Assembly: GCA_022865885.1 (NCBI GenBank)
Contig: JALHSQ010000055.1
Coordinates: forward strand, 61,618 to 125,617
Reading direction: 5' to 3'
DNA from: Candidatus Bathyarchaeota archaeon
GTDB lineage: Archaea > Thermoproteota > Bathyarchaeia > Bathyarchaeales > Bathycorpusculaceae
Length of the DNA stretch: 64,000 nucleotides
Shown: piece after piece, positions 9,374-26,456 of the stretch
Position numbering within the stretch: the stretch's first letter is position 1
How the letters are laid out: each line of letters starts with the position of its first letter
The notes under the pieces: generated by a model
The model's input: the letters and a program-made list of their open reading frames with translations, nothing else
Database searches by the model: none
Told to the model about the DNA's origin: nothing
Position numbers and translations under genes: made by a program

Positions 9374-9563
9374 TCAATTCACCTTTTGAATAGCAATTCA
9401 ATTCACGCCTCTTTTTAGTCTAACTTACACATTTTTGTCTATTACGCCAAAACCAGCAACCTGCTCTTTTAGTTATTGAATTAAAGCCTAAAAACATTTT
9501 CACTCTGCCATATAGCCCCACATATATACCCGCATGTTTCCAACATATTAACAACGTATAAGA

Positions 9564-10268: not shown

Positions 10269-10286
10269 GAGTGAGGATGGAGAAAA

Positions 10287-11027
10287 ATGTCGCAAAACTC
10301 CAATCTTTTTCTTTTTGTTGGAAAGCAAGTTGAGGACGAATACGGACGCGTGATTGGTAAAGTAGCAACCTTCGTCGTGACTCCTAGCGGAAGATTCGAT
10401 TCTGTATTTATGGAGCAAGGTGACGGACGATTCATAAAGCACTCTGTAGAACACTTGAAAGTCGATGGTACCGGAGTAACCCTTCTCTCAAAGATGAAAT
10501 CAGAAGCAGGAATTCTCTGTGACCACATTCCCCTCATATGGCGCAAAGACCAAGCCCTTCACGAATTGTCTGGAAAGAAGAAAATCTCACCCGAACTCTA
10601 CGATCAACTGCATAATTGCTTCGACGGCGCACTTACCCAACTGAAAAGCGAAGCCCAAAAACTTGGAGAAGACATAGACAAAGAGATCAGCAGGTGTGCT
10701 GAAGAGATCAAGGCGCTGAACTATGCATTAATACATCTTGAAATTGAACGCGAAGTAGGGAAGATAGATGACAAAAACTATGAATCAGCCTTCACCATAA
10801 TCCAAGACAACCTCAAACACGTCAACCTAGAAAAAAGCGACCTGGAAGTGACAAAGAACAAGCTCTCCAACATTCTGCTGGGCGACAAGCTAGGCAAAGT
10901 TGAGAACATAGGCACAAAAGCAAAAGAACAGATCTCCAGAAGCTCCACTGTAGCCTATTCCTCTCCAGAGCTTCCAGAGCCACCCGTGGTCGTGTACGTG
11001 AAGGAAATCGGAAAGACTGGAATATAG
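10287..11027 (+). CDS. cdvA: CdvA cell-division protein (PRC-barrel N-domain, coiled coil, C-terminal ESCRT-III-binding tail)
   Basis: PRC-barrel-like N-terminus (LFVGKQVEDEYGRVIGKVATFVV), long coiled coil, C-terminal PELPEPPVVVYVKEIG tail. Flanked by CdvB paralogs and Vps4. Confidence 0.7.
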   Translation: MSQNSNLFLFVGKQVEDEYGRVIGKVATFVVTPSGRFDSVFMEQGDGRFIKHSVEHLKVDGTGVTLLSKMKSEAGILCDHIPLIWRKDQALHELSGKKKISPELYDQLHNCFDGALTQLKSEAQKLGEDIDKEISRCAEEIKALNYALIHLEIEREVGKIDDKNYESAFTIIQDNLKHVNLEKSDLEVTKNKLSNILLGDKLGKVENIGTKAKEQISRSSTVAYSSPELPEPPVVVYVKEIGKTGI

Positions 11028-11048
11028 CCAACCACAAGAAGATGACGG

Positions 11049-11963
11049 GTGGAGGAAAAGAAAATCAAAGGATTCATTCGTTCTAACCCCCCACCACTTT
11101 GTGAAACCGTTGCCAGATCAGTGCAAACCCTAAAAGTCCAGCGCAACAAGCTCCAACAGACAAACTTTAGACTCAGGGAAAGAGACAAAGCCCTTTTTCA
11201 AACATGCATCACAGCACTAAACAATAAGAACAGAGAGAGAGCTGCGATTTTTGCGAATGAAGTCGCAGAAGTCCGAAAACTGATAACCTTCCTCTACAAC
11301 GTTGAACTTGCTATCGAACGGGTTATCATTAGACTTGAAACAATCAAGGAACTAAGCGACGTAGTTACAGACCTCAAGCCCGCACTACGGTTGCTTCAGA
11401 GTGTCTCTCAAGAATTGTTTGCCTTCTTGCCAGATGTGTCTACCGAGCTGAGCACTGTCAACGAAACGATTAACGAAACACTCTATTCAACAAAGATAAC
11501 GACAGATGAATCAATGATACCTGTTGACAGAAAAACGCCTGGAGGAGAAGAAATACTGAGAGAAGTAACAGGCCTTCTTGAGCGGAAAATTGCCGACGAT
11601 CTTCCCGAACCACCCGCCACAATAAGAACCCTTGAGACTGGACAGACTACGCTGAAAAAGATGGTTACCTTGACCGCGACATGTTCAGAAGCGACAAACC
11701 ATGAAACCGTTGAAGAATCCACGTTTGATTCTTCTCAAACCCTCCTTTCTTATACGAAAGCTGAGATTAAGGAAATCTCGTTGACGGTTGAAAGGCCGTC
11801 ATTGGAAGATGCACTTCTTGGTTACGTCAAGAAGAGTAATGGTGAAATTGATTTAACACGTTGTTCAGTAGAATTGGAAAGCTCGCATGAGGAAATTGAA
11901 AAAGCCCTTGAGAGTCTAGGGACGAAGGGCAAAATCAAGATTGAATTAAAGACAGGTGAGTAG
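11049..11963 (+). CDS. cdvB: ESCRT-III/Snf7-family protein (CdvB paralog 2) with approx 130-aa C-terminal extension, possibly a winged helix
   Basis: Snf7 core (AAIFANEVAEVRKLITFLYNVELAIERVIIRL). DLPEPPATI MIM2-like motif. The C-terminal region LLGYVKKSNGEIDLTRCSVELESSHEEIEKALESLG has a wH-like pattern. Confidence 0.65.
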   Translation: MEEKKIKGFIRSNPPPLCETVARSVQTLKVQRNKLQQTNFRLRERDKALFQTCITALNNKNRERAAIFANEVAEVRKLITFLYNVELAIERVIIRLETIKELSDVVTDLKPALRLLQSVSQELFAFLPDVSTELSTVNETINETLYSTKITTDESMIPVDRKTPGGEEILREVTGLLERKIADDLPEPPATIRTLETGQTTLKKMVTLTATCSEATNHETVEESTFDSSQTLLSYTKAEIKEISLTVERPSLEDALLGYVKKSNGEIDLTRCSVELESSHEEIEKALESLGTKGKIKIELKTGE

Positions 11964-11975
11964 GAGGAAAACTAA

Positions 11976-13145
11976 GTGAGTGCTTCGCAGGAACTCGAAA
12001 AAGCGGCAACTCGACACGCGTTGGAAGCGGTGCGCCTGGACAAGCAAGGTTCAAAAGGCTTGGCCATAACGATGTATCAAAAGGCCATAGAAAGCCTTCT
12101 TCAGTTGAGTCAACTCTACCCTGAATATAGTCTCAACAAAGTTTACATACAAAGGGCAATAGCCTACCAAGAACGAATAAAAGCATTGCAGGGAGCAGTG
12201 ATGTCAACTGAACCGAGAACAGGAGAGACTAACAACACTGAATGCACCGGAAAAACCCATGAAGGCGGAAAATCAACCTACGAAGAACTAATAGTCATGG
12301 AAAAACCGAAAGTCAAATGGGAAGAAGTGGTAGGACTAGACCCAGCGAAGAAAGCAGTAAAAGAAGCAATCGTCTATCCTGTTCAAAGACCCGATCTTTT
12401 CCCATTAGGGTGGCCGAGAGGAATACTGCTGTTCGGACCGCCAGGCTGTGGCAAAACTTTGCTGGCTGCAGCGGTAGCCACGGAGATAGACGCCACATTT
12501 GTCTCAATAGATGCTGCCTCGATAATGTCTAAATGGTTAGGCGAAGCAGAACAGAACGTTGCGAAGCTTTTCGGTTCAGTAAGAAAGTCTGCAATAGAAG
12601 GCAAGCCATCAATAGTCTTCATTGACGAACTGGAATCCCTGATGGGAAAACACTCAAATGAAGTTGGTGGAGAAATCCGTGTCCGGAACCAATTCCTGAA
12701 AGAGATGGATGGCATTGTTGACAAAGGCAAGAATATCCACGTTTACGTTATTGGCGCAACCAACAAACCATGGGACTTGGACTGGGGATTCATACGAAGA
12801 TTCCAAAAAAGAATACTCGTGCCCCTTCCTGATCACCACACCAGACTTATGATGTTCAAACTCTACACGACAAACCTGCAACTAACAACTGACGTTGACC
12901 TACATGAACTGGCCAGAATCTCAGAGGGCTTCTCAGGAAGCGACATACGAGACGTTTGTCAATCAGCTCAGCTAAAACTCATAGGCGAATTCTTCGAAAC
13001 TGGCCAAGCTAACAACAAACAAGCTAAACCACGACTGCTTACGATGGACGATTTCAGGCAAATCCTGGAAGAGAGAAAGCCAAGTGTGTCTCTAGACATG
13101 CTGTCACTGTACAACAGATGGTCTGAAGCCTTCAAAGCTCTGTAG
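11976..13145 (+). CDS. cdvC: Vps4/CdvC AAA+ ATPase with N-terminal MIT domain
   Basis: Walker A GPPGCGKT, Walker B IVFIDELE and an N-terminal MIT-like helical domain. 389 aa. Confidence 0.9.
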   Translation: MSASQELEKAATRHALEAVRLDKQGSKGLAITMYQKAIESLLQLSQLYPEYSLNKVYIQRAIAYQERIKALQGAVMSTEPRTGETNNTECTGKTHEGGKSTYEELIVMEKPKVKWEEVVGLDPAKKAVKEAIVYPVQRPDLFPLGWPRGILLFGPPGCGKTLLAAAVATEIDATFVSIDAASIMSKWLGEAEQNVAKLFGSVRKSAIEGKPSIVFIDELESLMGKHSNEVGGEIRVRNQFLKEMDGIVDKGKNIHVYVIGATNKPWDLDWGFIRRFQKRILVPLPDHHTRLMMFKLYTTNLQLTTDVDLHELARISEGFSGSDIRDVCQSAQLKLIGEFFETGQANNKQAKPRLLTMDDFRQILEERKPSVSLDMLSLYNRWSEAFKAL

Positions 13146-13272: not shown

Positions 13273-13698
13273 TCATGAGTGTTCTCTTGCAATAATCCTC
13301 TCAATCAAGTCTACAATCCCTGCAGGGTTTTCGAGTACGTCCACATATGGCGCTTTCAGGTTTAGACTTCTTGTCGAATAGGGTCCCGTAAAACACAGTA
13401 TTGGCTCGAAATCCTTAGTCGCTTCCAAAGCCTCATCAGCAGACTTTGCAACAATGATCTTGAACACTTGCCTATTTTTGGCCACAATTCTCTTGAATCC
13501 TTCCAAGAAGATTGCGCCGCTGTCTCTGCACCTTTGCAGGATTTCATCAATCGGAATGTTCATCGTATCCGTTCTCTCTATTGTAGCGATTTCGCCTCGC
13601 GACACGCTAATAATGGTTCTTGCTCCTGCCTGTGCGAATCTCCAAGTGTCCTTTCCTCTAGTGTCGATCGTGAAGTCCGATTCCGAGACGTGTTTCAC
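13273..13698 (-). CDS. mobB: MobB-like molybdopterin-guanine dinucleotide biosynthesis adapter. The ORF as called from its GTG lacks the P-loop, which is encoded in frame immediately upstream (to 13812)
   Basis: Called ORF has HVSESDFTIDTRGKDTWRFAQAGA (a MobB motif). The in-frame upstream translation VETVVIAVVGSKKSGKTTTIEALTRELSERGHRVAAVKH contains the Walker A loop. Confidence 0.65.
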   Translation of the reverse strand: MKHVSESDFTIDTRGKDTWRFAQAGARTIISVSRGEIATIERTDTMNIPIDEILQRCRDSGAIFLEGFKRIVAKNRQVFKIIVAKSADEALEATKDFEPILCFTGPYSTRSLNLKAPYVDVLENPAGIVDLIERIIAREHS

Positions 13699-13815: not shown

Positions 13816-14295
13816 TCATTTCATTTCTTCCGAGAAGATCTCGACCAGCGTCTTGTTGTTTATCGAAAGTTTTTCCGAGAGGTTCCTTACCCACTTTACG
13901 TATGCCCTAAAAAGATTCAGTAGTATTTCGGCTTTTTCCTTCCCTGACAATTCCTTCTCGTCTGCAAGCAGAAGAGCAAACCATCTGCCTGTATCTGAAA
14001 GCTGGTAAGCTTTGACCCACACCGTTCGTCCATCCTTTTCTGTTTTCTCCATATCTTCATTCAGGATCTTCAGCTTAGTGAGCGACTTCAAATTCCCGAT
14101 AACCGTCTTATTTGAGTAAGCAAGCTTGGTGACTAGATCCCTCTGGTAAATCCTGTTTGAAATGCCTTGATGAAGTGAGAAGTTCAGAATGTCAACGGCT
14201 GCCCTTGAACCGAAGATTGCTCCTAAGATCTTTGTCTTTTGTTCAGATGGAAGGAAAACTACATACGGATGCAGATCATCGCTCAATTCGTGCAC
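13816..14295 (-). CDS. Winged helix-turn-helix DNA-binding protein (putative transcription regulator)
   Basis: HTH IYQRDLVTKLAYSNKTVIGNLKSL followed by the wing DGRTVWVKAY. The TGA stop at 13813-13815 is in the same frame as the MobB P-loop. Confidence 0.45.
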   Translation of the reverse strand: MHELSDDLHPYVVFLPSEQKTKILGAIFGSRAAVDILNFSLHQGISNRIYQRDLVTKLAYSNKTVIGNLKSLTKLKILNEDMEKTEKDGRTVWVKAYQLSDTGRWFALLLADEKELSGKEKAEILLNLFRAYVKWVRNLSEKLSINNKTLVEIFSEEMK

Positions 14296-14499
14296 TCAGA
14301 CTTGACTGTTAGGTACATCTTAAAAACTGTTTCTTATGCAATAGATTTTTCTGAGTGTTAAATACATCTTTTTCAAAGGTGTTTTTGGACGACTTTCGCA
14401 ACATGGACCCCTACAGATGGTGACACTTTTGGTACTGAAGAAGGGTTCATATTCAACGTCTTCGGGTATGAACACCCAAATGACAGGGTTTTCGCCTTC

Positions 14500-15414
14500 T
14501 TGAAATACATACCAACGAGATTCAAGACACTTTTCGATATTGATTTTCTGGGAAGAACTTGGGAATATGGAGGAGTAACCCTCTTACGAGCCGAGAAACT
14601 CTATACAGCAAATAACTATAGGGCCTTCCTCAGTGCTTTTCGAGACAACTTCCCAGAATACGTGTATTTCTGTCCATTCAGGAAAAAGGAAGTGATCAGC
14701 GCTCCTTTGGATACAGTGAAGAGAGTCTACGTTCCACGAGAGTCACTGCGTTCTTTAGTTGAGCTTGGAAGCAGAGACAGCCTGCAGGAGACGACACTAG
14801 ATCTTGTCAATCTGCTGTCAGACAAATCCGGTATTGCCATTCAGGATTTCGGCGTTCACGGCTCTATAGCTTTGGACATGTACACGGACAAATCCGATAT
14901 TGACATAGTCGTCTATGGAGCCAAAAATTTCCGCGTCTTGGAGAGAACGATAGATGTTCTTGTTAAGACAAAAGCGTTGACCTATCAAACCAAGAACAGA
15001 CTTGATGCTGTTCGACACTTCCGGGGACGCTATAGTCGCAAGATCTTCATGTACAACGCGGTTCGAAAACCGGAAGAGGTCAGCATTGAATATGGTGCGC
15101 TTGAGTATTCCCGAATTCATCCATTGAGGTTTCGTTGTACAGTCAAAGATGACAGTGAAGCAATGTTTCGTCCAGCAACCTATGAAATAGAAGACTACAA
15201 ACCATCTAATACGCGGTCTGAGATTTCAAAGGGTTTGATGCCGAGACTTGTGGTTTCGATGATTGGCTGTTATAGGAACGTTGCGAGAAAAGGCGACAAA
15301 ATTGAGGTCTCGGGAACATTGGAGCGTGCAGCTAACACCAAAACGGGTGAAGCTTTCTATCAAGTCGTTGTTGGAACAGGCGTCAGTGAGGAAGAGAGTA
15401 TTTGTCCGATTTGA
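14500..15414 (+). CDS. Pol-beta-superfamily nucleotidyltransferase-fold protein with C-terminal OB-like domain (paralog A). Conserved N-terminal segment continues in frame upstream of the TTG start
   Basis: NTase motif [24 protein letters not shown] (GS...DxD). Shares FP(E/R)Y and GL/I blocks with paralogs B and C. Upstream in-frame [22 protein letters not shown] matches the B N-terminus. Confidence 0.55.
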
Positions 15415-16469
15415 AACTCCGAGACCGCGACGCAATTGTGACGAAGGAAGGGTTGATCTTTCGCGTTTTCGGATATTCACATCCATCAGATTCTTACATC
15501 TGCGACGCTGAATATGCGCCGGCATCGATATTCAAGTCTGACAATCCAAAGGCGTTTAGAAACAAGGGACATAGCGTTTTCTACAAATTCTATGAAGATG
15601 AGGGCTGGCAGCTAGTCCACGACAGATTTCCAAGGTATTTGGTTTTCCATGAGATGCTGCAACGGAACATTGTTGGGGTCAGCCACAACGACATTGTGAA
15701 GGTTCGAAAGCCGGAAGCGGCTCTGAAGAAGTTGATTTTCAGAAAACCTAGAGATAAACTTGAAACGGCTATGCAAGATGTTCTAGGACTAGTAACGGAG
15801 CATTCGGGTCTGCACTTTGACAATTTTGGAGTCTTTGGCTCAATGCTTCACAATTTCCATCATCCAGACTTCTCGGATGTGGACCTTACAATCTATGGAA
15901 GAGAGAAAACTGCTAGATTACGTACGACTTTGCAGAAGCTGTATGAAGATGGCTCTTTCCCGCTTACAAACGAATTCGCAACAGCCAAATCATTGAGGGG
16001 CAAGTCTTGGAGGTTCCGCAATCTCAATCCAAAAGAATTTGTGTGGCATCAACGCAGGAAAATGATCTACTCGTTGTTCAGCGACGAAAAGAGCGGAAGG
16101 ATCATCAAGGTAGAATTTGAGCCCGTGAAGGACTGGGTTGAAATCACCAGTGATTATGATCCAGAGACTAGAATCGTGCAGAAAGGCTGGGCTAGGATGC
16201 TTTGCGTCATTGTAGAAGCAAGTGATGCTCCTTTCATTCCATCAGTCTACAGTGTTAAGCCTCTAGAGATTCTTTGCGGAAAAGATGCTGGAGAGGTGAC
16301 TCGCGTTGTCTCCTACATGGAAGAATTTCGGTTGCAGGCAAATAGAGGAGAAAAGGTCTATGTGGAAGGGAATCTGGAAGAAGTCATTACTTCAAAAGGG
16401 CACTTCCATCAGGTTGCATTGACTTATTGCGCGAGATATTATGAGCAGGTTTTGAAAGTTGCTTTCTAG
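15402..16469 (+). CDS. Pol-beta-superfamily nucleotidyltransferase-fold protein with N-terminal domain and C-terminal OB-like domain (paralog B)
   Basis: Motif [26 protein letters not shown]-terminal [32 protein letters not shown] is OB-like. Overlaps the end of paralog A by 13 nt. Confidence 0.55.
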
Positions 16470-17485
16470 TCTAGCTTAGCTAGAATCACAAAGTCTGACG
16501 GATTGTTTCCTAGCAGAAGCCTGAACCATTCGCGATTGTGCTTGTTGTCAATGACACGCTCAACTTTTCCTTGAGCAACAACGGTTTCACCGTTTCTTGC
16601 TTGTTCACAGAATCTGCCCCGGAAAGACGCAATCTCTTGTATTGGAAGACCAGTTCCTTCAATAACCGTCACTTGCTCGATCTTGTATTTGCAGGGCGTG
16701 AAAATCGACTCAGAACAATCACTGATCACGGCTTTGATTCTTGCATAGCCAACATTCTTGTATTGAATATCACCATATTTCTCGTCAATCTCATTCCAGT
16801 CTTTCACAAAACGCACAAAATAATCCGTTCCCATAAACTTGCCTTGTATGGCCTTCCTCGATTCAGTTCGAACAAAATCTTTGAAACCCGTAGTTGTGTC
16901 CTTCGAACGAAAATCGAACAAGGTCCTTAATTCCTCCTTAGTGTAGGATTTGAATGTTTCATTCTCACTGTTCAGGAGTTCTCTCAGCGTCGAATGGACT
17001 CTGTAGCAGTTTTCGGAACCATAGATTATAGGGTCAATGTCTGACTTTGGCGTGTGAAGCCCAATCAGAATCGAGCCGGAAATTCCAACCGAGTTATGGG
17101 GAATGTTTGCTCTTTCTCTCAAAGCATCTGTCAGCTGTAAGGCTTTGCTTCCAAGTTCGTCCAAGTGGCTGGAAGCATGTAGCTCCCGAAGGCCATCACA
17201 GGGTTTGTAGTGTTTCTTAATCTCATTGACTGGGACTTCACAAATTGTTTCATCAAGAACAGGGTCATAGACGAGATATCGTGGAAACCTCGCCTTCAAC
17301 AGCGCGTATCTTTCTGGAAGAGAGTAGATCTTCTCAAAGGCTATTCCGTTCTTTCTTCTTTTTCCTTCCAGATCTGGGAAATACCGAATGAAGGCGACTA
17401 TTCGATTCGCAGGATGGATCAAGCCTTTTACGTCAAAAAGAATTCTTGCATCAGTTTCTACGATGTCGCCTTCTCTTCCATTCAT
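16466..17485 (-). CDS. Pol-beta-superfamily nucleotidyltransferase-fold protein (paralog C). Likely true start is the internal Met at 17485, although the open frame runs to 17626
   Basis: Motif VGISGSILIGLHTPKSDIDPIIYG. N-terminal MNGREGDIVETDARILFDVKGLIHPANRIVAF aligns with the B N-terminus. RFPRYLVYDPVLDETICEV is conserved with B. Confidence 0.55.
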   Translation of the reverse strand: MNGREGDIVETDARILFDVKGLIHPANRIVAFIRYFPDLEGKRRKNGIAFEKIYSLPERYALLKARFPRYLVYDPVLDETICEVPVNEIKKHYKPCDGLRELHASSHLDELGSKALQLTDALRERANIPHNSVGISGSILIGLHTPKSDIDPIIYGSENCYRVHSTLRELLNSENETFKSYTKEELRTLFDFRSKDTTTGFKDFVRTESRKAIQGKFMGTDYFVRFVKDWNEIDEKYGDIQYKNVGYARIKAVISDCSESIFTPCKYKIEQVTVIEGTGLPIQEIASFRGRFCEQARNGETVVAQGKVERVIDNKHNREWFRLLLGNNPSDFVILAKLD

Positions 17486-18303
17486 TTTGCCGCGTCCAGC
17501 AGATCTATTGCGAGGACCTTCAGATTCGCTCTTTTCAAAGCTAGAAGCACGGCAGTTCCAATAATGGCTCCTGCAAGGCAGTTCATGGAATCTGCGATGG
17601 CGTAGTAAATGGTCATCGGCGCCCAATAAGGATACATTTCAGGAACGCCCCAATTCAGTACCCAGACTCCGATGTTGTTTCCAGTTGCAACGTCGCCGCC
17701 TATTCGAGAGATCCAAGCCAAGCACCATAGGGCAAGAGGCAGATTATGCAAATCCCTTCTGATGATGGAGTTGATGATCCATTTCCTTATTGGAGGAATG
17801 ACGATGAACGCTAGGACAACCCAGTACTGCCAAGTTATGAGCGGCATAGCTCCATACCATGCGAAGGGGTGCGAAAACCATATTGCCATTTCTAAGCCGA
17901 AAATCAGCATTGCCTCTTTCCACTTGTTGAACAACACTAGACCACTCATCAATGCGGCTATCGTCGGGCTAAGGAACGTAAGTAGGCCAATAGATGTCTG
18001 CGGATTCACGTATGGGACAATCCATCCGAAGACAAAGCCTGAGAGACCTCCCCATAATGGCCCCAACATAGGAGCGGTCAAACCTGAGAATACGATATTA
18101 GACAAAGTGATGACTGCAGGAGTTCCAAAAACCGGGTAGGCGGGATACCAGACGCAGGCAAGTACTAGAGCAACCCAGATTCCTGTTAAGGCCAAGAGCA
18201 AAACGTTGCTGACATATTTGGGAACCATAGAATTCTGGCGTCCAATGTCAATTTTTCCATTAGAGTGTAACTTTTTACACAACGTTAATAAAACTTTCCA
18301 CAC
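17482..18303 (-). CDS. Polytopic membrane protein (about 7 TM), transporter-like, co-oriented immediately upstream of NTase paralog C
   Basis: Hydrophobic throughout. Its end overlaps the putative Met start of paralog C by 4 nt (ATGA). No diagnostic motif recognised. Confidence 0.45.
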   Translation of the reverse strand: MWKVLLTLCKKLHSNGKIDIGRQNSMVPKYVSNVLLLALTGIWVALVLACVWYPAYPVFGTPAVITLSNIVFSGLTAPMLGPLWGGLSGFVFGWIVPYVNPQTSIGLLTFLSPTIAALMSGLVLFNKWKEAMLIFGLEMAIWFSHPFAWYGAMPLITWQYWVVLAFIVIPPIRKWIINSIIRRDLHNLPLALWCLAWISRIGGDVATGNNIGVWVLNWGVPEMYPYWAPMTIYYAIADSMNCLAGAIIGTAVLLALKRANLKVLAIDLLDAAK

Positions 18304-18324
18304 GAAGCTTCATGAGAATGAACT

Positions 18325-19275
18325 ATGCAAATTGATCCGCATGATTCTGCCACGCGTGTTTCACAGTGTCTAGAATTGGCTATTCTCTTGGAAGCTAGTG
18401 CCCATAAACCTGGAAACGTGACTGTAGTTACTGACTTTGAGAGGACACGTTACGAGCATTTTCTAGCTTCCGCCGTCGCTGCGACACCTACTTTTGAGTA
18501 CGCTGCTACGCGAGGTGTTGCAGTTTCCAAAGGCGTCATTCAAGTGGTAGATGTTGGCGTCGGGAGCATCATCAGAGATTGTGTGGCAAACATTAACGTG
18601 TGGCAGCACGGTGGCAACACACTGCTTGGCACAGTTATCTTGCTTTCGCCAATCGCGGTTGCTGCTGGCATGATTCTAACTGGAAATGCTCTGGAGATTC
18701 CACAGCTTAGAGAGAAGTTGAGGCTCGTTGTGGAGTCGACGACGCCTGAGGATGCTGTAGCTGTTTATGAAGCAATAAAGATCGCTAATCCTGGTGGGCT
18801 TGGCAAAGCTGCGAGACTCGACGTTAACGATCCTGATTCGATAAACACGATTCTTGAGGAGAAAATTTCGTTATATGCGGTTTTCAAGATGGCTGAGAAG
18901 TATGATACGATTTGCTCTGAATGGGTTAACGATTATGCTGTGACATTTGATCTTGCTTATCCCACTTTGATCAAGCACATTGGAAAGACGGATGACTTGA
19001 ATGTGGCTATAATTCACACTTTCTTGAGTGTTCTGGCGGATTGTCCTGACACGTTTATAGCTAGAAAGACAAGTCCTGAAAAAGCTATGGAGATCTCATC
19101 TAGAGCTAAAGAGGTTTTGAACCTTGGAGGGCTTGAAACTCCGAATGGAGAGAGAAGTCTTAGGCGATTTGATCTGCAACTTAGGAAGTCGAGTAACCTT
19201 TTGAATCCAGGCACTACTGCAGACATTATCGCAGCTGCATTGGCCTTGTGTGTTCTCGGTGGATACAGGCCCTAG
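18325..19275 (+). CDS. CitG/MdcB-family (triphosphoribosyl-dephospho-CoA synthase-like) protein
   Basis: N-terminal LLEASAHKPGNVTVVTDF resembles the CitG xKPGLVD signature. 316 aa. Confidence 0.5.
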   Translation: MQIDPHDSATRVSQCLELAILLEASAHKPGNVTVVTDFERTRYEHFLASAVAATPTFEYAATRGVAVSKGVIQVVDVGVGSIIRDCVANINVWQHGGNTLLGTVILLSPIAVAAGMILTGNALEIPQLREKLRLVVESTTPEDAVAVYEAIKIANPGGLGKAARLDVNDPDSINTILEEKISLYAVFKMAEKYDTICSEWVNDYAVTFDLAYPTLIKHIGKTDDLNVAIIHTFLSVLADCPDTFIARKTSPEKAMEISSRAKEVLNLGGLETPNGERSLRRFDLQLRKSSNLLNPGTTADIIAAALALCVLGGYRP

Positions 19276-19598: not shown

Positions 19599-20003
19599 AT
19601 GCAAGCGAAGTCTAAACTGCTAGTAACACTGGTTACTGGTCGAACAATAGAGCAAGGCGTCGGCAAGGAACAAGGGAAAACCTCAAAAGAGTATGTGGAA
19701 AGCGTTTCGATCTGTTTTGTTGACTCAGAGGATTTGAAAAAGCTCGGGATTAAAGAGAAGACTAACGTTCTGGTTTCAACGAAATATGGTTCTGTCGTGA
19801 TCAAGGCTTTGAGATCGCTGTGTGGTTCACATCCAGGAGTGATTTTTGTGCCTTATGGTCCGTGGGCGAATGTCTTAGTCTGTCCTGAAACTGATAGTAT
19901 CGGCATGCCGTCCATGAAGGGAATTCCGGCACAGATTGTCCCGGCAGTAGATAAGCCTATTTTGAGTCTGAAAATGCTTCTCAAGAGGCAATTTGGAAAA
20001 TAG
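19599..20003 (+). CDS. fwdD: Formylmethanofuran dehydrogenase subunit D (molybdopterin dinucleotide-binding domain)
   Basis: LVTLVTGRTIEQG, GPWAN, TDSIGMP and KGIPA are typical FwdD/FmdD motifs. 134 aa. Confidence 0.8.
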   Translation: MQAKSKLLVTLVTGRTIEQGVGKEQGKTSKEYVESVSICFVDSEDLKKLGIKEKTNVLVSTKYGSVVIKALRSLCGSHPGVIFVPYGPWANVLVCPETDSIGMPSMKGIPAQIVPAVDKPILSLKMLLKRQFGK

Positions 20004-20142
20004 TTGCCAACAATCGTCTGGTGCTTCTTCTTGCGTGTATTGCCCTTCATTTGTCTCGATTTCAAGCTTACGCGTATTCACGGTTTGACTTGCTCTCGAG
20101 TTTAATTTAAATATCCAACTCGCGTAGTAAGATTGATGGAAT

Positions 20143-20643
20143 ATGACTTGGCATTGTCCCAAATGTGGAAATGTAGTTCTGGAAAACGCTGGTTTTTGCG
20201 CGTACTGCGGTACACCGATTAGAATCGTTCAACCAGTAGAGATTAGGAGATCAGGTCTTCCAGTGGCGGGAGGCATTCTACAGATAATCTCAGCGTGCAT
20301 ATGCGTGATTGTCGCAACGATTAGCATGGCAATTCTTGCCACGTCCTCCTACTCCTACTATTACTACTACTATTCGCCGTGGGGGTTCTGGTTTGTTGGA
20401 GCATTTGGGTTGATTGGGTTCGCATTTGGGCTAGTGGGCGGAATCCTCACGTTAAGGAGGAAGTATTTCGAGACGGCATTGATCGGCGCGAGCCTCGTAA
20501 TGATTTCAGGCCTGATCAGCGTTACAGCGTGGGGAGCGCTGCCATACAGCGGCTTCGTTTTCGCCCTGTTCGGAATACCAACAATCATCCTTTCAGCACT
20601 AAGCCTGATTTTCATTGCAGCATCCAAAATGGAGTTCGCCTGA
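20143..20643 (+). CDS. Zinc-ribbon (CPKCG...CAYCG) membrane protein with Tyr-run (SSYSYYYYYYSPWGFWF)
   Basis: N-terminal double CxxC, four predicted TM helices, Y6 run encoded by tac/tat repeats at approx 20350-20375. Confidence 0.45.
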   Translation: MTWHCPKCGNVVLENAGFCAYCGTPIRIVQPVEIRRSGLPVAGGILQIISACICVIVATISMAILATSSYSYYYYYYSPWGFWFVGAFGLIGFAFGLVGGILTLRRKYFETALIGASLVMISGLISVTAWGALPYSGFVFALFGIPTIILSALSLIFIAASKMEFA

Positions 20644-20827
20644 CCTAACAGTATCCGAGATCATTTCGAATTTGCCAGGCAGACTGAAGAATCACTTCAG
20701 GCTTCAAACCCAACACTTCGCTGGCGGATGCTCACGTTTGGAGAAGACTTGTGATCTTGGATAAACCAAAAGATTTAATGATTGAACCAAGAAGTTTAGG
20801 CATCCAAGTATAAGGTGCGCCAAAGCT

Positions 20828-22285
20828 TTGGTGCTTCGTTTAGAGGCTATTACGTGTCCCGTTTGTGGATGTTTGTGCGATGACATAGAGCTAACCATCC
20901 GAGGCGGGAGAATTGCCAAGATCAAAAATGGTTGTGCAATGTGTGAATCAAAGTTCTTGGGATATTCTCGTCATAGACTTCTGAAACCCCTAATCAGGCG
21001 AAGGGGCAGATTGGTTGAGGTTTCTCTTGATGAGGCCATAACAAAGGCTGCTAAGATACTTGCCGAAGCAAATTACCCCCTGTTTTATGGTTGGAGTTCA
21101 ACGAGTTGTGAGGCTATACGCGTCGGACTCGAGTTGGCAGAGGAGACTGGTGGAGTAATCGATAATACGTCAACAGTCTGCCATGGACCATCTGAGCTTG
21201 CCGTACAAGACGTAGGCATTTCGACCTGCACGCTTGGGCAGGTAAGGCACAGAGCAGACTTGATGGTTTATTGGGGAAGCAACCCTTGGAGTGCTCATCC
21301 CCGGCACATCGAAAGATACACGAACCTTTCAGAAGGCAGATTCGAAAGAAGCGAATGGAAAAGCTACCTTAACAGGGCTAAAGCATCAAACGCTAGGAAA
21401 AAGGTCGAAACTGTACTGCGAAGAGTCTGGCCAAAAGAGGGACAGCTTTCAAGATCTCCAACCACAAAGGAGCCATTTCCAGCCCTTTTGAAGGAAGGAA
21501 GAAAACTAGTAGTGGTTGATGTAAGGAAGACCAGATCCGCAGAAATAGCTGACTACTTCATCCAAGTTGAACCCAACAGAGACTACGAGCTACTTCAAGC
21601 ACTTAGAGCCCTAGTTCTCGATCAAGAGCTTGACGTTGACCAGGTTGCAGGGGTACCAGTAGGATACTTGGAGGAAGTCGCCGAAGTAATGATTAACTGC
21701 AAATTCGGTGTGATCTTTTTCGGACTTGGACTCACAATGAGCAATGGAAAGCTGAGGAATGTGGATGCTGCCCTCTCCTTAACCCGGGATTTGAACAGAC
21801 GCACGAAATTTGTGATAATGCCCATGAGAGGACACTTTAACGTTACAGGTGCAGACACTGTTTTCACTTGGCAAACAGGCTATCCCTTTGCAGTTGACTT
21901 CTCACAGTGTTATCCGCGATATAATCCGGGAGAGACAACGGCCGTTGACATTTTGTTGCGCAAGGAATCAGATGCGGCTTTGGTTGTGGCTTCCGATCCG
22001 GTCGCAAACTTGCCGAGAAAAGCTGTTAAGCATCTTGTCAAGAACCCTTTGATAGTCATAGACCCGCACATGAATGCCACTTCACAAATGGCTGACATCG
22101 TTTTTCCCTCAGCCTTTGTCGGGATAGAAGCCGCTGGAACAGCTTATCGCATGGATCATGTACCACTTCCGCTCAAACAAGTGGTTGTGCCGCCAAAAGG
22201 AATACTGTCAGACAAAGAGATCCTAATGAGAATACTCTCCGAAGTCAAAAAGAAGAGAATCGCTGACAAGGCGGAGGCGTCATAG
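20828..22285 (+). CDS. fwdB: Formylmethanofuran dehydrogenase subunit B (Mo/W-bis-MGD catalytic subunit)
   Basis: N-terminal CPVCGCLCDDIEL [4Fe-4S] motif typical of FwdB. MopB-fold length. Confidence 0.85.
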   Translation: MVLRLEAITCPVCGCLCDDIELTIRGGRIAKIKNGCAMCESKFLGYSRHRLLKPLIRRRGRLVEVSLDEAITKAAKILAEANYPLFYGWSSTSCEAIRVGLELAEETGGVIDNTSTVCHGPSELAVQDVGISTCTLGQVRHRADLMVYWGSNPWSAHPRHIERYTNLSEGRFERSEWKSYLNRAKASNARKKVETVLRRVWPKEGQLSRSPTTKEPFPALLKEGRKLVVVDVRKTRSAEIADYFIQVEPNRDYELLQALRALVLDQELDVDQVAGVPVGYLEEVAEVMINCKFGVIFFGLGLTMSNGKLRNVDAALSLTRDLNRRTKFVIMPMRGHFNVTGADTVFTWQTGYPFAVDFSQCYPRYNPGETTAVDILLRKESDAALVVASDPVANLPRKAVKHLVKNPLIVIDPHMNATSQMADIVFPSAFVGIEAAGTAYRMDHVPLPLKQVVVPPKGILSDKEILMRILSEVKKKRIADKAEAS

Positions 22286-23977
22286 TTGGATCTTCTGATC
22301 AGCAACGGTTTCGTTTATGACCCTGTCAACGGTGTCAACGGCGAAAAAATGGATATTGCAATCAGAAATGGCAAGATTGTCGAAAGAATCAATACGCGCG
22401 GAGTCCACAAGATAGATGCTTCAGGGATGGTAGTCATGCCAGGCGGAGTGGATATTCATTGCCACATTGCTGGTTCGGAAGTCAATACTGGAAGACTCTT
22501 GAGGCCCGAAGACCACTTCAGAGACGTTGAATGTAAGACGTCTGTGACACGATCGGGAGTTGGACGTTCGATTCCCTCTACTTTTGCTACTGGCTATCGA
22601 TATGCAAGAATGGGTTACACTACAATAATGAATCCTTCAATGGCTCCTCTGGAGGCTAAACACACGCATGAAGAGTTGAATGACACTCCAATGGTTGACA
22701 AAGCTACATACCCGCTTCTGGGCGACTGGTGGTTTGTGCTCGAATACTTACGACAGGGAGAAATGAAGGAGCTTGCAAGACACGTCGGTTGGCTAATGAC
22801 TTCTACAAAAGGATATGCAGTGAAAATTGTTAACCCCGGGGGTTTGGAGGCATGGGGCTTCGGGCATAATGTTCACAGTTTGGATGATCAGGTTCCATAT
22901 TTCTGTATAACACCGCGTGAAATCATTCGCGGTCTATGCAAGGCGAATAAGCTTCTAAACTTGCCTCACACTATTCACGTTCATACGAATAATCTTGGAC
23001 AGCCCGGCAATTACGTTACTGCTTTGGAGACGATGAGGTGCGTTGAGGATTTGGCTGTTGGTGACAAGCCGGTGATTCACATCACTCACTGCCAGTTTAG
23101 TGCTTTCAAAGGTGAGGACTGGCGAACACTGAAATCGGGTGCAGAAGAAATCGCGAATTATGTCAACTGTCACAGTCATGTAACGTTGGATATGGGCCAA
23201 ATCATTTTCGGCGACACAACCACCATGACGGCTGATGGCCCATTCCAATTTGAGCTTTCAGAATTAACTAAGAATAAATGGGTAAATCACGATGTTGAAA
23301 CTGAGACAAGCGCAGGCATCGTGCCTTTCCACTATCGCCGCAAAAGCTACGTCCATGCAATCCAATGGTCAATAGGCTTGGAACTGGCCTTGCTTGTCAA
23401 GAATCCGTGGAGAATCTTCATGACAACAGATCACCCGAATGCTGGACCGTTTACCCAGTATCCTAGAATCCTTGCTTGGCTAATGAGCAGAAAGGCCAGA
23501 GAAGCCACCTTGAAGAGAGTTAATTCTAGGGCTAGATGCGCTAGTCTTCTCCCTTCAATAAGCCGTGAGCTAGGGTTCTACGAGATTGCAGTCGTCACGA
23601 GAGCTGGGCAAGCAAAAGCTCTAGGTCTCAAGAACAAAGGACACCTAGGTGTCGGTGCAGATGCAGACGTAGCCATATACCACGTGAACCCTGAGACCAC
23701 AGATCCTGCAAGAGAATACAAGACTGTGCGTAAGGCGTTCAAGCATGCAGCCTACACTATTAAGGCTGGCGAGATCGTTGTCAAAAACGATGAAATAGTG
23801 AAACATGTGAAGGGTTCTACAATGTGGCTTGACGTGCAGACCTCGGAACCTGCTAAATTGACAGATGACATGAAGAGAAGGTTCAGGGAATATTGGACGG
23901 TTGAATACGAAAACTACCCAGTGACAGAGGAATATGTCGAAGTTTCATGTCCTCGAATTGTGAAGGCTGACGTTTAA
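22286..23977 (+). CDS. fwdA: Formylmethanofuran dehydrogenase subunit A (amidohydrolase)
   Basis: MPGGVDIHCHIAG metal-binding motif. 563 aa. TTG start abutting the fwdB stop. Confidence 0.85.
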   Translation: MDLLISNGFVYDPVNGVNGEKMDIAIRNGKIVERINTRGVHKIDASGMVVMPGGVDIHCHIAGSEVNTGRLLRPEDHFRDVECKTSVTRSGVGRSIPSTFATGYRYARMGYTTIMNPSMAPLEAKHTHEELNDTPMVDKATYPLLGDWWFVLEYLRQGEMKELARHVGWLMTSTKGYAVKIVNPGGLEAWGFGHNVHSLDDQVPYFCITPREIIRGLCKANKLLNLPHTIHVHTNNLGQPGNYVTALETMRCVEDLAVGDKPVIHITHCQFSAFKGEDWRTLKSGAEEIANYVNCHSHVTLDMGQIIFGDTTTMTADGPFQFELSELTKNKWVNHDVETETSAGIVPFHYRRKSYVHAIQWSIGLELALLVKNPWRIFMTTDHPNAGPFTQYPRILAWLMSRKAREATLKRVNSRARCASLLPSISRELGFYEIAVVTRAGQAKALGLKNKGHLGVGADADVAIYHVNPETTDPAREYKTVRKAFKHAAYTIKAGEIVVKNDEIVKHVKGSTMWLDVQTSEPAKLTDDMKRRFREYWTVEYENYPVTEEYVEVSCPRIVKADV

Positions 23978-24790
23978 ATGATAACCATTTACCCATTGAG
24001 AGAGTTCAAGCTTCCAATAACTGTTGATTGCGTGAATCCTGACATCTTTCAAAATGGGCATTGCAGAGAAATAGTAGACTCGAAAGTCTGGGAAGGAAAC
24101 AAGCAGAAGAAACTCAGAGAGCTTTTCAGAATAGAGGAAGCTGGGCTTGAAGATTCAACGATAGCAGTCTGTGGTGATGTAAGCAAAGTTCGTAGGATAG
24201 GAGCATGCATGACGAGTGGGACAGTAATCATTAACGGAGATGTCGGCATGCATTTGGGAGAAGAAATGAAAGGTGGCAAGATAATCGTAAACGGAAACGT
24301 GGGCAGTTGGGCTGGCTCTATGATGAAAGGTGGCGAAATCAAGATCCATGGCAATGTCGGAGACTATCTGGGCGCCCCATACCGAGGAAGCGATGAAGGC
24401 ATGGCTAAAGGACGTATAATTGTTTATGGGACTGTAGGAAATGAAGCGGGAGCACACATGAAGAGTGGCATGCTGAAGATCTATGGAAGTGTCGGTCAAT
24501 TCACCGGTTTTCGAATGCATGACGGAACGATATACGTTCAGAAGGACTGTGCAGGAAGAGTTGGTGCTTGCATGGAGGGCGGTAAGATCATCATCGGTGG
24601 ATGCTTGGAGTCTGTTCTGCCTACTTTTACGATTGATAGTGTCAAGGCTAAAGTCAAGATTGAGGAAGGCGAAATTGTTGGGAAGCCATTCTATGTCTTC
24701 CTTGGGGATCTTGCAGAGAACGGGAATGGCAAGCTTTATGTTTTGAAAGAGAAGAACCCACAACTAAGTCATTTCGAAAGGTTTCTTTGA
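23978..24790 (+). CDS. fwdC: Formylmethanofuran dehydrogenase subunit C (GXGXG-repeat beta-helix)
   Basis: Repeated G-x-V-G-x-x-x-G-x-x-M-K-G-G-x-I blocks (e.g. NGDVGMHLGEEMKGGKIIVNGNVGSWAG). Confidence 0.85.
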   Translation: MITIYPLREFKLPITVDCVNPDIFQNGHCREIVDSKVWEGNKQKKLRELFRIEEAGLEDSTIAVCGDVSKVRRIGACMTSGTVIINGDVGMHLGEEMKGGKIIVNGNVGSWAGSMMKGGEIKIHGNVGDYLGAPYRGSDEGMAKGRIIVYGTVGNEAGAHMKSGMLKIYGSVGQFTGFRMHDGTIYVQKDCAGRVGACMEGGKIIIGGCLESVLPTFTIDSVKAKVKIEEGEIVGKPFYVFLGDLAENGNGKLYVLKEKNPQLSHFERFL

Positions 24791-24803
24791 GGAGAACTGC
24801 AAA

Positions 24804-25763
24804 GTGGAAAGGAATCTGAGCGTGAACCGTCTGGCATGGACTCTCGTAGGAAAACTGGTTGAGAACCACGCGTTCTACGGCGTTAAGGTGAGCAAGGTAG
24901 ATTCTGGGGCAACAATCGTAGATGCTGGCATAGATGCGAAGGGCGGCTTTGAAGTGGGAAGACTTGTGACTGAAATCTGCATGGGAGGCTGCGGAAAAGC
25001 AGACTTGACCAACAAGAGATATGGAGATTTGGAGCTTCCATCCATATTTGTTTACACTGACCATCCGGCTATCGCAACCTTGGGCTCTCAATATGCAGGT
25101 TGGCAAATAAGTGAGGGAGGCTATTTTGCGATAGGTTCTGGGCCGGCAAGAGCCTTAGCTTTGAAACCGAAGGGGATTTACCGCGAAATAAAATACCGCG
25201 ACAGCTTTGAGAAAGCCGTTGTCGTTCTTGAAACTGATAGAATTCCACCAGCGAGGATAGTTGAACGAATCGCTGAGGACTGCAGGATCAGCAGTGAAAA
25301 CTTGACGCTAATCCTAACTCCGACAGCTAGTATCGCTGGAGCAACCCAAGTATCAGGGAGAGTAATTGAAACTGGGATTCACAAGCTGAGAAAATTGGGG
25401 CTAGATCCCGGCGTGATCCTGAGTGCGTGGGGATGCGCTCCTATACCACCAATCCATCCTGTATTCGCAAACGCAATGGGGAGAGCAAATGACGCTATAC
25501 TCTACGGCGGAATTGCCTATTATGCTGTTGAACACGACCATGAGGAGAGACTAGAGAATATCGTACAAAATTCTGCTTCAAGGTACTCCAAGGATTACGG
25601 GAAACCATTCTTTGAGATTTTCAAAAAAGCGGAATTCGATTTTTACAAGATCGATCCTAATCTCTTCGCGCCAGCTATTATGATAGTCAATAATGCGAAG
25701 ACAGGCCACACGTTCAGGAGCGGTGAAATCAACGTCGATGCACTTGCGAAGTCGTTTTGCTGA
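24804..25763 (+). CDS. mch: Methenyltetrahydromethanopterin cyclohydrolase
   Basis: ICMGGCG, TDHPAIATLGSQYAGWQI, FAIGSGPARALALKPK, YGKPFFEIFK and FYKIDP match remembered Mch blocks. 319 aa. Confidence 0.8.
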   Translation: MERNLSVNRLAWTLVGKLVENHAFYGVKVSKVDSGATIVDAGIDAKGGFEVGRLVTEICMGGCGKADLTNKRYGDLELPSIFVYTDHPAIATLGSQYAGWQISEGGYFAIGSGPARALALKPKGIYREIKYRDSFEKAVVVLETDRIPPARIVERIAEDCRISSENLTLILTPTASIAGATQVSGRVIETGIHKLRKLGLDPGVILSAWGCAPIPPIHPVFANAMGRANDAILYGGIAYYAVEHDHEERLENIVQNSASRYSKDYGKPFFEIFKKAEFDFYKIDPNLFAPAIMIVNNAKTGHTFRSGEINVDALAKSFC

Positions 25764-26340: not shown

Positions 26341-26456
26341 CCCTCTAGGCGTGACTCACCCCTTCTTGTAGAGTAGCTATTTAAGAGTAGCTACTCAGAA
26401 AAGAGTGTGGTCTGAGGGCATGCTGAAAGATAAATATCGCTGACGCATATTCCTTA

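Follow-up and report, generated by a model that had tools for sequence, protein, structure and literature searches.

The locus and its genes

The window (the whole 64-kb stretch of DNA analyzed) contains three tandem genes, A, B, and C (Table 1). As the original prediction had proposed, they are homologous: their products are true paralogs with 24–30% pairwise identity (E = 1e-19 to 1e-33). The trio sits in a 17-kb island together with MobB, a CitG-like gene, FwdDBAC, Mch, a RimK-like ligase, and FdhD. The Fwd and Mch genes of 19599..25763 encode methanofuran- and tetrahydromethanopterin (H4MPT)-dependent one-carbon (C1) enzymes; the ATP-grasp ligases of C1 cofactors have been covered elsewhere (PMC8141765). 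The gene C product is 100% identical to a Bathyarchaeota protein at NCBI (P0001), and genes of this family currently carry the labels "hypothetical" or "nucleotidyltransferase domain-containing."

Table 1. Features of the locus, in window positions
Feature	Position	Strand	Remarks
MobB	13273-13698	-	syntenic with gene A in Bathyarchaeia
Small winged-helix (wHTH) protein	13816-14295	-	syntenic with gene A in Bathyarchaeia; wHTH recurs in other loci
Shine-Dalgarno-like GGTG and probable non-canonical ACG start of gene A	14378..14391	+	GGTG 14378-14381; ACG 14389-14391
Gene A	14389..15414	+	NTase-OB paralog, clade A; 341 aa if the ACG start is used
Gene B	15402..16469	+	NTase-OB paralog, clade B; 355 aa; 13-nt overlap with A
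Gene C	16466..17485	-	NTase-OB paralog, clade C; 339 aa
ECF-transporter S-component-like membrane protein	17482..18303	-	closest to folate-binding FolT
CitG-family (PF01874) protein	18325..19275	+	Pfam E = 1.5e-66, full length; subfamily apart from bona fide CitG/MdcB
FwdD	19599-20003	+	
Zn-ribbon membrane protein	20143-20643	+	
FwdB	20828-22285	+	
FwdA	22286-23974	+	
FwdC	23978-24787	+	
Mch	24804-25763	+	
Metallophosphoesterase	27731-28660	+	
RimK-like ATP-grasp ligase	28740-29618	+	MptN/MyfA-MyfB type
FdhD	29615-30409	+	

Gene callers place gene A at 14500..15414 (304 aa); no in-frame ATG, GTG, or TTG occurs between the stop codon at 14359-61 and position 14500. Of 66 distinct regions upstream of orthologs, about 58 have an in-frame ACG at the homologous site, and about six have ATG instead. 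The conserved ACG is preceded by GGTG, AGGT, or GAGG at a distance of 7–9 nt, and in five ortholog loci a stop codon stands immediately before it. Orthologs, 327–345 aa long, share with the gene A product the N-terminal W-x-P-x-DGDTF..[13 protein letters not shown] motif. Translation of gene A appears to begin at the conserved ACG codon, so that annotation systematically truncates the gene. A frameshift or assembly error at its 5′ end, where a CCCC run lies at 14408-11, was considered and rejected because the missing canonical start and the conserved ACG recur in many independent genomes.

Domain architecture of the NTase-OB family

Each of the three proteins consists of an N-terminal beta domain, a Pol-beta nucleotidyltransferase (NTase) core, and a C-terminal OB fold (AlphaFold pLDDT 93); in the gene C product these occupy residues 1–93, ~95–235, and ~240–335, respectively. 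The NTase motif and OB domain first proposed from the sequence are thus present in all three. The core adopts the alpha-beta-alpha-beta NTase fold of the Pol-beta superfamily and carries an hG[GS] motif followed by the metal-binding [DE]h[DE]h motif. Conservation of this GS...DxD signature in homologs was checked and found to be 99–100% for both G134-x-x-G137-S138 and S148-D149-x-D151 (137 sequences), and PF01909 (NTP_transf_2) was matched in 65 of 68 family members. The original prediction could not assign the family, and profile and structure searches agree: no Pfam or NCBIfam family covers the full length, no solved structure matches A, B, or C over the full length, and single-sequence and profile searches against the PDB gave nothing significant. 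Searches of the literature returned no paper that deals with the family or with what the archaeal CitG-like gene does.

Strands 214–227 hold no conserved acidic residue; position E232 is acidic in 93% of sequences, and E309 of the OB domain is 100% conserved. Across the archaeal clades, the OB domain also keeps G306 (100%), P264 (99%), and Y267 (97%). This invariance suggests to us that the OB domain contributes to an active site for small molecules and does not act as a generic nucleic-acid binder. The earlier suggestion of an RNA-modifying family, in which the proteins would modify or tail RNA or tRNA with the OB fold binding RNA, draws on the structural neighbors of the domains (GLD2, poly(A) polymerases, Cid1, and the anticodon-binding OB of Lys/Asp/Asn-tRNA synthetases), but it found no further support. 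The gene neighborhoods described below point to methanopterin-type cofactor synthesis instead, and we consider an RNA substrate very unlikely.

Distribution of the family and the FolT-like membrane protein

The family is mainly archaeal, with proteins of ~340 residues. More than 80 Bathyarchaeia species (84 loci) have the A/B/C trio as a core locus in conserved synteny, and the best 80 matches of a contig profile scan all came from Bathyarchaeia. Homologs from Thermoproteota, Korarchaeota, Asgard, and Methanofastidiosia group into four ancient clades (A, B, C, and U). G-x-x-GS and SD-x-D are conserved in every one of these, and clade C is the most widely spread. A metagenome scan was run with the U-clade alignment. 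The taxonomy of distant members was sampled by 30 cluster look-ups, in which the named members belonged to Bathyarchaeia, Korarchaeota/Thermoproteota, Vulcanisaeta, Thor- and Promethearchaeota, and Methanofastidiosia.

A divergent NTase-OB branch is found on Streptomyces plasmids. There, the homolog lies in a cassette beside genes for a histidine phosphatase, an APH-type kinase, and a 382-aa protein that has no Pfam, PDB, or family match.

Gene C had been noted to overlap the co-oriented membrane gene by 4 nt; indeed, the two are translationally coupled via an ATGA overlap. The membrane protein is homologous to S-component families and structures. Its profile matched FolT in the PDB (4z7f, 1.7e-5; 5d0y, 8.9e-5; and 5d3m) as well as RibU. 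PF07155 was matched in 13 of 22 orthologs (best E = 6.9e-31) and PF12822 was also matched among them; the window copy itself falls below Pfam thresholds. No EcfA/T genes are present among the annotated ORFs of the window. The protein would serve in the binding or uptake of a pterin-type compound.

In having a Pol-beta NTase core and, in the window, a membrane protein that is co-transcribed, the locus resembles CD-NTases (cGAS/DncV-like), and the original prediction saw a lead toward nucleotide signaling or anti-phage defense with a membrane effector. This reading is largely refuted, and we give it almost no weight. PADLOC produced no CD-NTase or effector matches, only a marginal 30-residue MNT-like match for A, and no phage homologs were found. 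Unlike a CD-NTase system, this is a housekeeping locus, fixed and syntenic throughout the Bathyarchaeia species above, and its membrane protein is an ECF S-component like the vitamin-binding FolT, not an effector. Moreover, loci that lack the FolT-like gene still keep the A/B/C trio.

Association with a CitG-like gene and with C1 cofactor genes

The gene on the strand opposite to gene C, previously recognized as CitG-family, does match PF01874 over its full length. It scores 28–48 bits against the NCBIfam CitG/MdcB equivalog models, whose cutoffs are 272–477, and its neighbors are Fwd, Mch, and the NTases. A CitG-like gene is the commonest direct neighbor of the NTase-OB family across archaea: 19 NTase/CitG-like pairs lie less than 400 nt apart, 13 of them on the same strand and several overlapping. 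Among 35 clade C cases, 13 have it as the adjacent gene. The pair in the window is divergent (17482-19275). The overlapping NTase-then-CitG layout mirrors that of E. coli, where citX and citG share 26 nt.

In a methylotroph, a CitG-family gene adjoins mch and a glutamate ligase gene (PMC11533326), and orf5 is the glutamate ligase MyfB, not the CitG homolog (PMC8141765). Methylotrophs make dephospho-H4MPT, which is without the phosphate and hydroxyglutarate (PMC8141765, PMC6193120). Their possession of a CitG-like gene fits this product; none of the NTase-OB homologs found could be attributed to a methylotroph.

Elsewhere, homologs neighbor Ftr, Fwd, Mch, MfnB/MfnF-like, and MptH/MptA-like genes. 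A C1 or cofactor gene lies within 5 kb in 56 of 87 non-Bathyarchaeia loci, and in 28 of the 43 such loci that have at least 3 kb on both flanks. In Vulcanisaeta, MptE-like, Ftr, FwdBDAC, Mch, and ATP-grasp genes precede an NTase gene overlapping a CitG-like gene, and ATP-grasp_3, MfnB, MfnF-like, hydantoinase-like, and Fae genes follow the pair. The order in Promethearchaeota is DUF447, DUF1464, flavoprotein, MptH-like, MptA-like, then NTase; in Methanofastidiosia, the NTase comes directly after Cdh (CODH/ACS) genes. Methanofastidiosia and Asgard loci have clade C only, in H4MPT-type contexts. In one protein (P0392), HPPK, a pterin pyrophosphokinase (PF01288, E = 3e-40), is fused to a clade-C NTase-OB; a PF02441 flavoprotein gene and then an MptH-like gene follow. 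Clade U adjoins methanofuran genes (MfnB, MfnF-like, and ATP-grasp) about as often as the CitG-like gene.

The MobB, FdhD, and Fwd genes nearby, in the window and in many other loci, could be taken to indicate MobA-like enzymes active in molybdo/tungstopterin dinucleotide formation or in maturation of formylmethanofuran dehydrogenase. We regard this as very unlikely. The HPPK fusion, the MptH/MptA/DUF447/flavoprotein neighbors, and the FolT-like S-component point to a 6-substituted pterin of the folate/methanopterin kind, not to molybdopterin, and the Methanofastidiosia gene lies beside Cdh with no Fwd nearby.

A proposed role in methanopterin-type cofactor synthesis

Tetrahydromethanopterin and methanofuran serve as one-carbon carriers in methanogenesis, in the anaerobic oxidation of methane and alkanes, and in the archaeal Wood-Ljungdahl pathway. 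We know of no assigned enzyme for several steps in their synthesis, among them ribosyl-phosphate addition, hydroxyglutarate attachment, phenol-to-aniline conversion, and the methanofuran side chain. Very probably, the NTase-OB family consists of enzymes of methanopterin-type cofactor biosynthesis, possibly also acting in that of methanofuran; the gene neighborhoods and the HPPK fusion support this general role well. The original observation of a paralogous NTase-OB cluster is confirmed, and its functional reading holds in part, its defense/signaling and RNA versions having found no support.

The homology, fold, motif conservation, gene neighborhoods, HPPK fusion, and nature of the membrane protein are established; the substrates, the specific step, and a partnership with the CitG-like enzyme are inferred, and assignment of a step is tentative. 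The citrate lyase prosthetic group and the H4MPT side chain both contain the unit X-O-alpha-ribose-5-phosphate-O-Y. The CitG-like enzyme would use ATP to place a 5-triphospho-alpha-ribosyl group onto the ribitol hydroxyl of a pterin-arylamine intermediate, in parallel to CitG acting on dephospho-CoA. An NTase-OB enzyme, the best candidate being clade C, would then play a CitX-like part: an acceptor hydroxyl would attack the alpha-phosphate and pyrophosphate would be released. With (S)-2-hydroxyglutarate as the H4MPT acceptor, the product would be the ribose-5-phosphodiester of the side chain, formed by the type of reaction that CitX/MdcG catalyze once CitG/MdcB have acted. The A-B pair and U may catalyze similar nucleotidyl-transfer or phosphodiester reactions with different intermediates or acceptors, methanofuran synthesis being one possible setting.

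Several observations count against this explanation. The family has no detectable sequence relation to CitX, so the analogy is functional only. Classical methanogens, which make the hydroxyglutarate phosphodiester, are absent among the named members in the 30 cluster look-ups. Some Thorarchaeota and some Korarchaeota loci are without C1 context, the Streptomyces plasmid branch lies in an unrelated cassette, and the clade U neighborhoods are divided as described above. A third carboxylate conserved in the NTase strands is not evident. In addition, cell-extract work by White in 1996 reportedly pointed to PRPP, not ATP, as the ribosyl donor. Role and mechanism taken together, we nevertheless find the explanation moderately probable.

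An alternative within the same pathway area is that the enzymes activate an intermediate by adenylylating one of its hydroxyls or phosphates. One candidate substrate is ribofuranosyl-hydroxybenzene phosphate, whose phenolic OH would be activated ahead of its displacement by aspartate in phenol-to-aniline conversion. Others, in methanofuran synthesis, are F1-phosphate or building blocks of the side chain, where the enzymes would offer an alternative to MfnE. The frequent proximity of clade U to MfnB, MfnF-like, and RimK/ATP-grasp_3 ligase genes is consistent with this, and the HPPK fusion and MptH/MptA neighbors belong to the early, pterin-arylamine stage. The existence of four paralog clades implies that the family catalyzes more than one reaction, several ATP-dependent H4MPT/methanofuran steps are without an assigned enzyme (PMC8141765), and the Streptomyces cassette pairs the NTase-OB homolog with a small-molecule-type kinase and a phosphatase. 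However, the single most frequent direct same-strand neighbor is the CitG-like gene, methanofuran contains neither ribose nor phosphodiester, and the loci of Methanofastidiosia and Asgard hold only clade C, in H4MPT-type contexts. We consider adenylylation unlikely, though worth keeping in view.

Returning to the phosphodiester route, it is possible, if speculative, that the NTase-OB and CitG-like proteins are the long-missing enzymes of methanopterin side-chain assembly, with the invariant OB glutamate completing the active site of a novel kind of Pol-beta enzyme and hydroxyglutarate or other compounds as acceptors. If true, the four paralog clades would account for diverse methanopterin-like cofactors in non-methanogenic archaea. 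The family and its CitG-like partner are concrete candidates for cofactor steps that lack enzymes, and they come from lineages (Bathyarchaeia, Thermoproteota, Korarchaeota, and Asgard) whose cofactors have been deduced only from genomes. The annotation of NTase-OB genes can be corrected and a false defense lead removed.

Comparison with known systems

The NTase-OB core (PF01909) belongs to the superfamily of Pol-beta NTases, which includes GLD2/PAP/Cid1, Pol X, aminoglycoside, and minimal NTases. The family differs from these in its unique three-domain architecture without a full-length structural match, in having no PAP-associated or helical substrate domain, in its invariant OB residues, and in the third carboxylate not being evident. 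Like TiaS, the tRNA-Ile2 agmatidine synthetase, it is archaeal and joins a catalytic domain to an OB fold; the TCKD kinase module, the Zn ribbon, and a match to the TiaS family model are all absent, in agreement with the earlier statement that these are not TiaS proteins. Class I CCA enzymes had also been set aside, correctly so: the proteins, ~340 aa including the OB fold, match only the generic PF01909, show neither the head-neck-body-tail architecture nor matches to the CCA family models, and have no CCA enzyme among their listed structural matches. The membrane partner matches FolT and RibU structures by profile but is longer than typical S-components.

The closest functional parallel is with CitX/MdcG. 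Both groups are encoded beside, and often overlapping, a CitG-family gene (19 adjacent pairs for NTase-OB), and both may share hydroxyl attack on the alpha-phosphate of a 5-triphospho-alpha-ribosyl compound with loss of pyrophosphate. Membership in the CitX family itself was rejected, hhalign of the NTase-OB alignment against E. coli CitX giving a probability of 0.8%. CitX is a protein of 183 aa that, unlike NTase-OB, has no OB or N-terminal beta domain, and its acceptor is an acyl-carrier protein serine, whereas that of NTase-OB would be a small hydroxy-acid. Finally, CitX/MdcG belong with citrate lyase or malonate decarboxylase genes, which are absent from the NTase-OB setting.

Three Paralogous NTase-OB Genes in a One-Carbon Cofactor Island

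Genes A, B, and C lie where the original prediction placed them and are, as it held, mutually homologous well beyond chance: A and B share 24% identity (E 1e-19), B and C 30% (E 1e-33), and A and C 25% (E 5e-30). All three match PF01909 marginally, yet above cutoff, and an NCBIfam search with the three gave no match. The window is from a Bathyarchaeota genome, and at NCBI a "Candidatus Bathyarchaeota archaeon" protein (P0001 in our numbering) matches protein C with 100% identity. A runs 13 nt into B, and B and the convergent C share 4 nt. The predicted 4-nt overlap of C with a membrane protein gene proved to be an ATGA with the membrane gene upstream, and the CitG-family gene expected beside the trio is present, divergent from the membrane gene.

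The trio belongs to a one-carbon (C1) island that also encodes MobB, the FolT-like membrane protein, the CitG-like protein, FwdD/B/A/C, Mch, a metallophosphoesterase, a RimK-like ligase, and FdhD; the remainder of the window carries unrelated housekeeping genes. Two ORFs between Mch and the metallophosphoesterase could be further cofactor-pathway genes.

Features of the window in and around the C1 island
Feature	Position	Strand	Remarks
Cdv cell-division cluster	9552-13145		CdvA, ESCRT-III-like CdvB, Vps4; adjoins island
C1 island	~13.2 to ~30.4 kb		
Gene A	14500..15414 (as called)	+	PF01909 match
Gene B	15402..16469	+	PF01909 match
Gene C	16466..17485	-	PF01909 match
Membrane gene	17482..18303	-	putative ECF-type S-component
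CitG-like gene	18325..19275	+	PF01874
Two-ORF region	25780-27716		no Pfam match
186-aa ORF		-	in two-ORF region
419-aa ORF	26457-27716		in two-ORF region
Second ECF-type S-component	30470-30964	-	Thia_YuaJ/ThiT-like, E 3.4e-42; island edge
Second CdvA-like gene	38912-39487		

Public gene calls for many A proteins are shortened to 304 aa. No in-frame ATG, GTG, or TTG occurs in gene A from the stop codon at 14359-61 to the TTG at 14500, and the conserved N-terminal domain is encoded upstream of this TTG, in the stretch lacking a canonical start. An in-frame ACG stands 3-6 codons ahead of a conserved Trp in about 58 of 66 distinct A-ortholog upstream regions, and ATG replaces it at the same position in about six. 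GGTG, AGGT, or GAGG lies 7-9 nt 5' of the ACG (in the window, a Shine-Dalgarno-like GGTG 7 nt 5' of ACG 14389), and at five loci a stop codon immediately precedes it. The missing canonical start, the conserved ACG, the upstream motif, and the stops directly before it together indicate that ACG 14389 is very probably the initiation codon of gene A.

Architecture and Spread of the Family

The AlphaFold model of C, built with 68 homologs, is confident (pLDDT 93, pTM 0.90). By Foldseek, no PDB entry resembles this model over its full length (best E 3.9e-3, TM <=0.21); PDB searches by sequence and by profile were empty. Among 137 family members, G134, G137-S138, S148-D149-x-D151, and G156 of the NTase core and P264, Y267, G306, and E309 of the OB domain are conserved at 97-100%, as are H24 and Y35 (97-99%) and P25 (96%) of the N-terminal domain; no conserved classical third carboxylate was found in the NTase sheet. 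The presence of invariant residues in all three domains suggests a composite active site of small-molecule type. The NTase-OB proteins are a new variant within the Pol-beta NTase superfamily, with a new architecture. Curated families and solved structures do not cover them, and a literature check confined to a searchable library turned up no paper on them.

At ~60-66% identity, the ortholog groups of C, B, and A comprise 2927, 2071, and 1808 hits, respectively. Searching 1.84 billion representative proteins with a profile returned 1559 clusters, nearly all full length and 502 of them at E <=1e-30, and a scan of GTDB species genomes returned 502 relatives, the best 80 of which are all on Bathyarchaeia contigs, a few of these wrongly named as bacterial MAGs. 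Named members beyond Bathyarchaeia belong to Korarchaeota/Thermoproteota, Vulcanisaeta, Thorarchaeota, Promethearchaeota, and Methanofastidiosia. Distance clustering gave four clades, A, B, C, and U, in each of which the nucleotidyl-transfer site is intact. Clade C is the most widespread, taking in the Asgard and Methanofastidiosia members, and U is the Vulcanisaeta type; A usually neighbors B, and C neighbors U, with three clades together at some loci.

Four GTDB genome contigs (L016, L052, L056, L067) with the archaeal block of Cdv genes, Fwd, and NTase trio are filed as bacterial MAGs (Acidiferrales, Krumholzibacteriaceae, Acidoferrum, Limnocylindrales), and some proteins bear a Zixibacteria label; these labels probably reflect binning contamination.

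The Trio Occupies a Core Locus

Fwd, CitG-like, membrane gene, C (forward), B and A (reverse), wHTH, MobB, Vps4, CdvB, and CdvA follow one another in this order almost without exception across 84 Bathyarchaeia loci. The trio locus is core rather than part of a variable island. Individual departures were seen: B is missing in L005 and L007, L048 has an additional C copy, L079 has wHTH, CitG-like, and S-component genes between C and A-B, and in L010, L013, L020, and L027 C has no adjoining CitG-like gene or S-component.

The membrane gene lies directly upstream of C in 66 of the 84 loci and was found again in 19 others; the trio is also kept in loci without it. A profile of 22 orthologs matches the folate-binding FolT structures 4z7f (1.7e-5) and 5d0y (8.9e-5), then 5d3m and RibU, and 13 of the 22 match PF07155 (best E 6.9e-31). 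By these matches the protein is classed as an ECF-type S-component, not the effector once envisaged, and its role may be to bind a pterin-type compound or take it up; the annotated ORFs of the window include no EcfA/T genes. A defense or signaling operon, one reading of the original prediction, is not borne out, given the syntenic core locus, a PADLOC search with nothing relevant, the lack of detected phage homologs, and the S-component. Its other reading, an RNA-modifying enzyme family, was not supported either.

Genomic Association with C1 and Cofactor Genes

Gene order differs among lineages, but the companion genes remain alike. In Vulcanisaeta, a single homolog is flanked on one side by an ATP-grasp ligase and on the other by a CitG-like gene that overlaps it, in an island with MptE-like, Ftr, FwdBDAC, and Mch and, further along, ATP-grasp_3, MfnB, MfnF-like, hydantoinase-like, Fae, and SHMT genes. 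In Promethearchaeota, the homolog is the last gene of an operon that encodes DUF447 and DUF1464 proteins, a flavoprotein, an MptH-like dihydropteroate-synthase-type protein, and an MptA-like cyclohydrolase; in Methanofastidiosia it comes after CODH/ACS genes, and on a 666-kb contig an ATP-grasp_3 ligase precedes three paralogs. The 80 metagenomic loci retrieved by searching with a profile of clade U repeatedly carry Ftr, Fwd, Mch, RimK-like ligase, MfnB, and MfnF-like genes, as well as DUF447, DUF1464, flavoprotein, MptH-like, and CitG-like genes. A C1/cofactor gene lies within 5 kb at 56 of 87 non-Bathyarchaeia loci, or 28 of 43 when >=3 kb of flank is required on both sides, both lower bounds since neighbors were labeled by single-sequence phmmer. 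Most often, the immediate neighbor is the CitG-like gene (19 pairs, 13 same-strand, several overlapping). A few loci show no informative context.

One protein (P0392; L172 5626-9086) fuses a bacterial-type HPPK, a pterin pyrophosphokinase (PF01288, E 3e-40), to a clade-C NTase-OB; a PF02441 flavoprotein and then an MptH-like gene follow in the operon. Such flavoproteins may be equivalent to AfpA/DmrB, archaeal-like flavoproteins related to dihydromethanopterin reductases (PMC6193120). NTase-OB proteins are genomically tied to pterin/C1-cofactor genes and a CitG-family enzyme.

On 22 Streptomyces plasmids, among them NZ_CP016084.1 and NZ_CP109318.1 (cassettes at L175 9237-13017 and L176 9238-13014), the family has a divergent member that is full length (27% identity, hhalign probability 99.6%) and in which the invariant OB-domain Glu is replaced. 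There, a conserved four-gene cassette encodes a histidine phosphatase, a 382-aa protein, an APH-family kinase, and then the NTase-OB protein. The cassette fits small-molecule phosphate chemistry and shows that the family extends beyond C1 metabolism.

A Proposed Role in Tetrahydromethanopterin Synthesis

Tetrahydromethanopterin (H4MPT) contains ribitol-O-alpha-ribofuranose-5-phosphate-O-hydroxyglutarate, and shares the arrangement X-O-alpha-ribose-5-P-O-Y with the citrate lyase prosthetic group. In making the latter, CitG forms the alpha-glycosidic bond from ATP, leaving the 5-triphosphate, and CitX then moves the group onto a hydroxyl with release of PPi. From this chemistry and the H4MPT structure we propose that the archaeal CitG-like enzyme would perform a CitG-type step on a methanopterin precursor and an NTase-OB paralog, clade C being the best candidate, a CitX-type step. 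A function of the archaeal family in C1-cofactor biosynthesis is highly likely; the particular CitX-like step, drawn by analogy, is put forward tentatively. Clade U has methanofuran genes for neighbors about as often as it has the CitG-like gene. Some paralogs may therefore serve methanofuran synthesis or a different ATP-dependent step toward H4MPT, e.g., the phenol-to-aniline conversion. The role predicted for the NTase-OB proteins is specific and testable, and the pathway concerned has long-standing gaps.

CitX has no detectable homology to NTase-OB. The overlapping NTase-then-CitG order of Vulcanisaeta matches citX-citG of E. coli. One methylotroph has a CitG-family gene beside mch and a glutamate ligase (PMC11533326); methylotrophs make dephospho-H4MPT, without the phosphate and hydroxyglutarate (PMC8141765, PMC6193120), and we found no NTase homolog attributable to a methylotroph. 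Both the E. coli-like gene order and these methylotroph findings fit the proposed two-step role.
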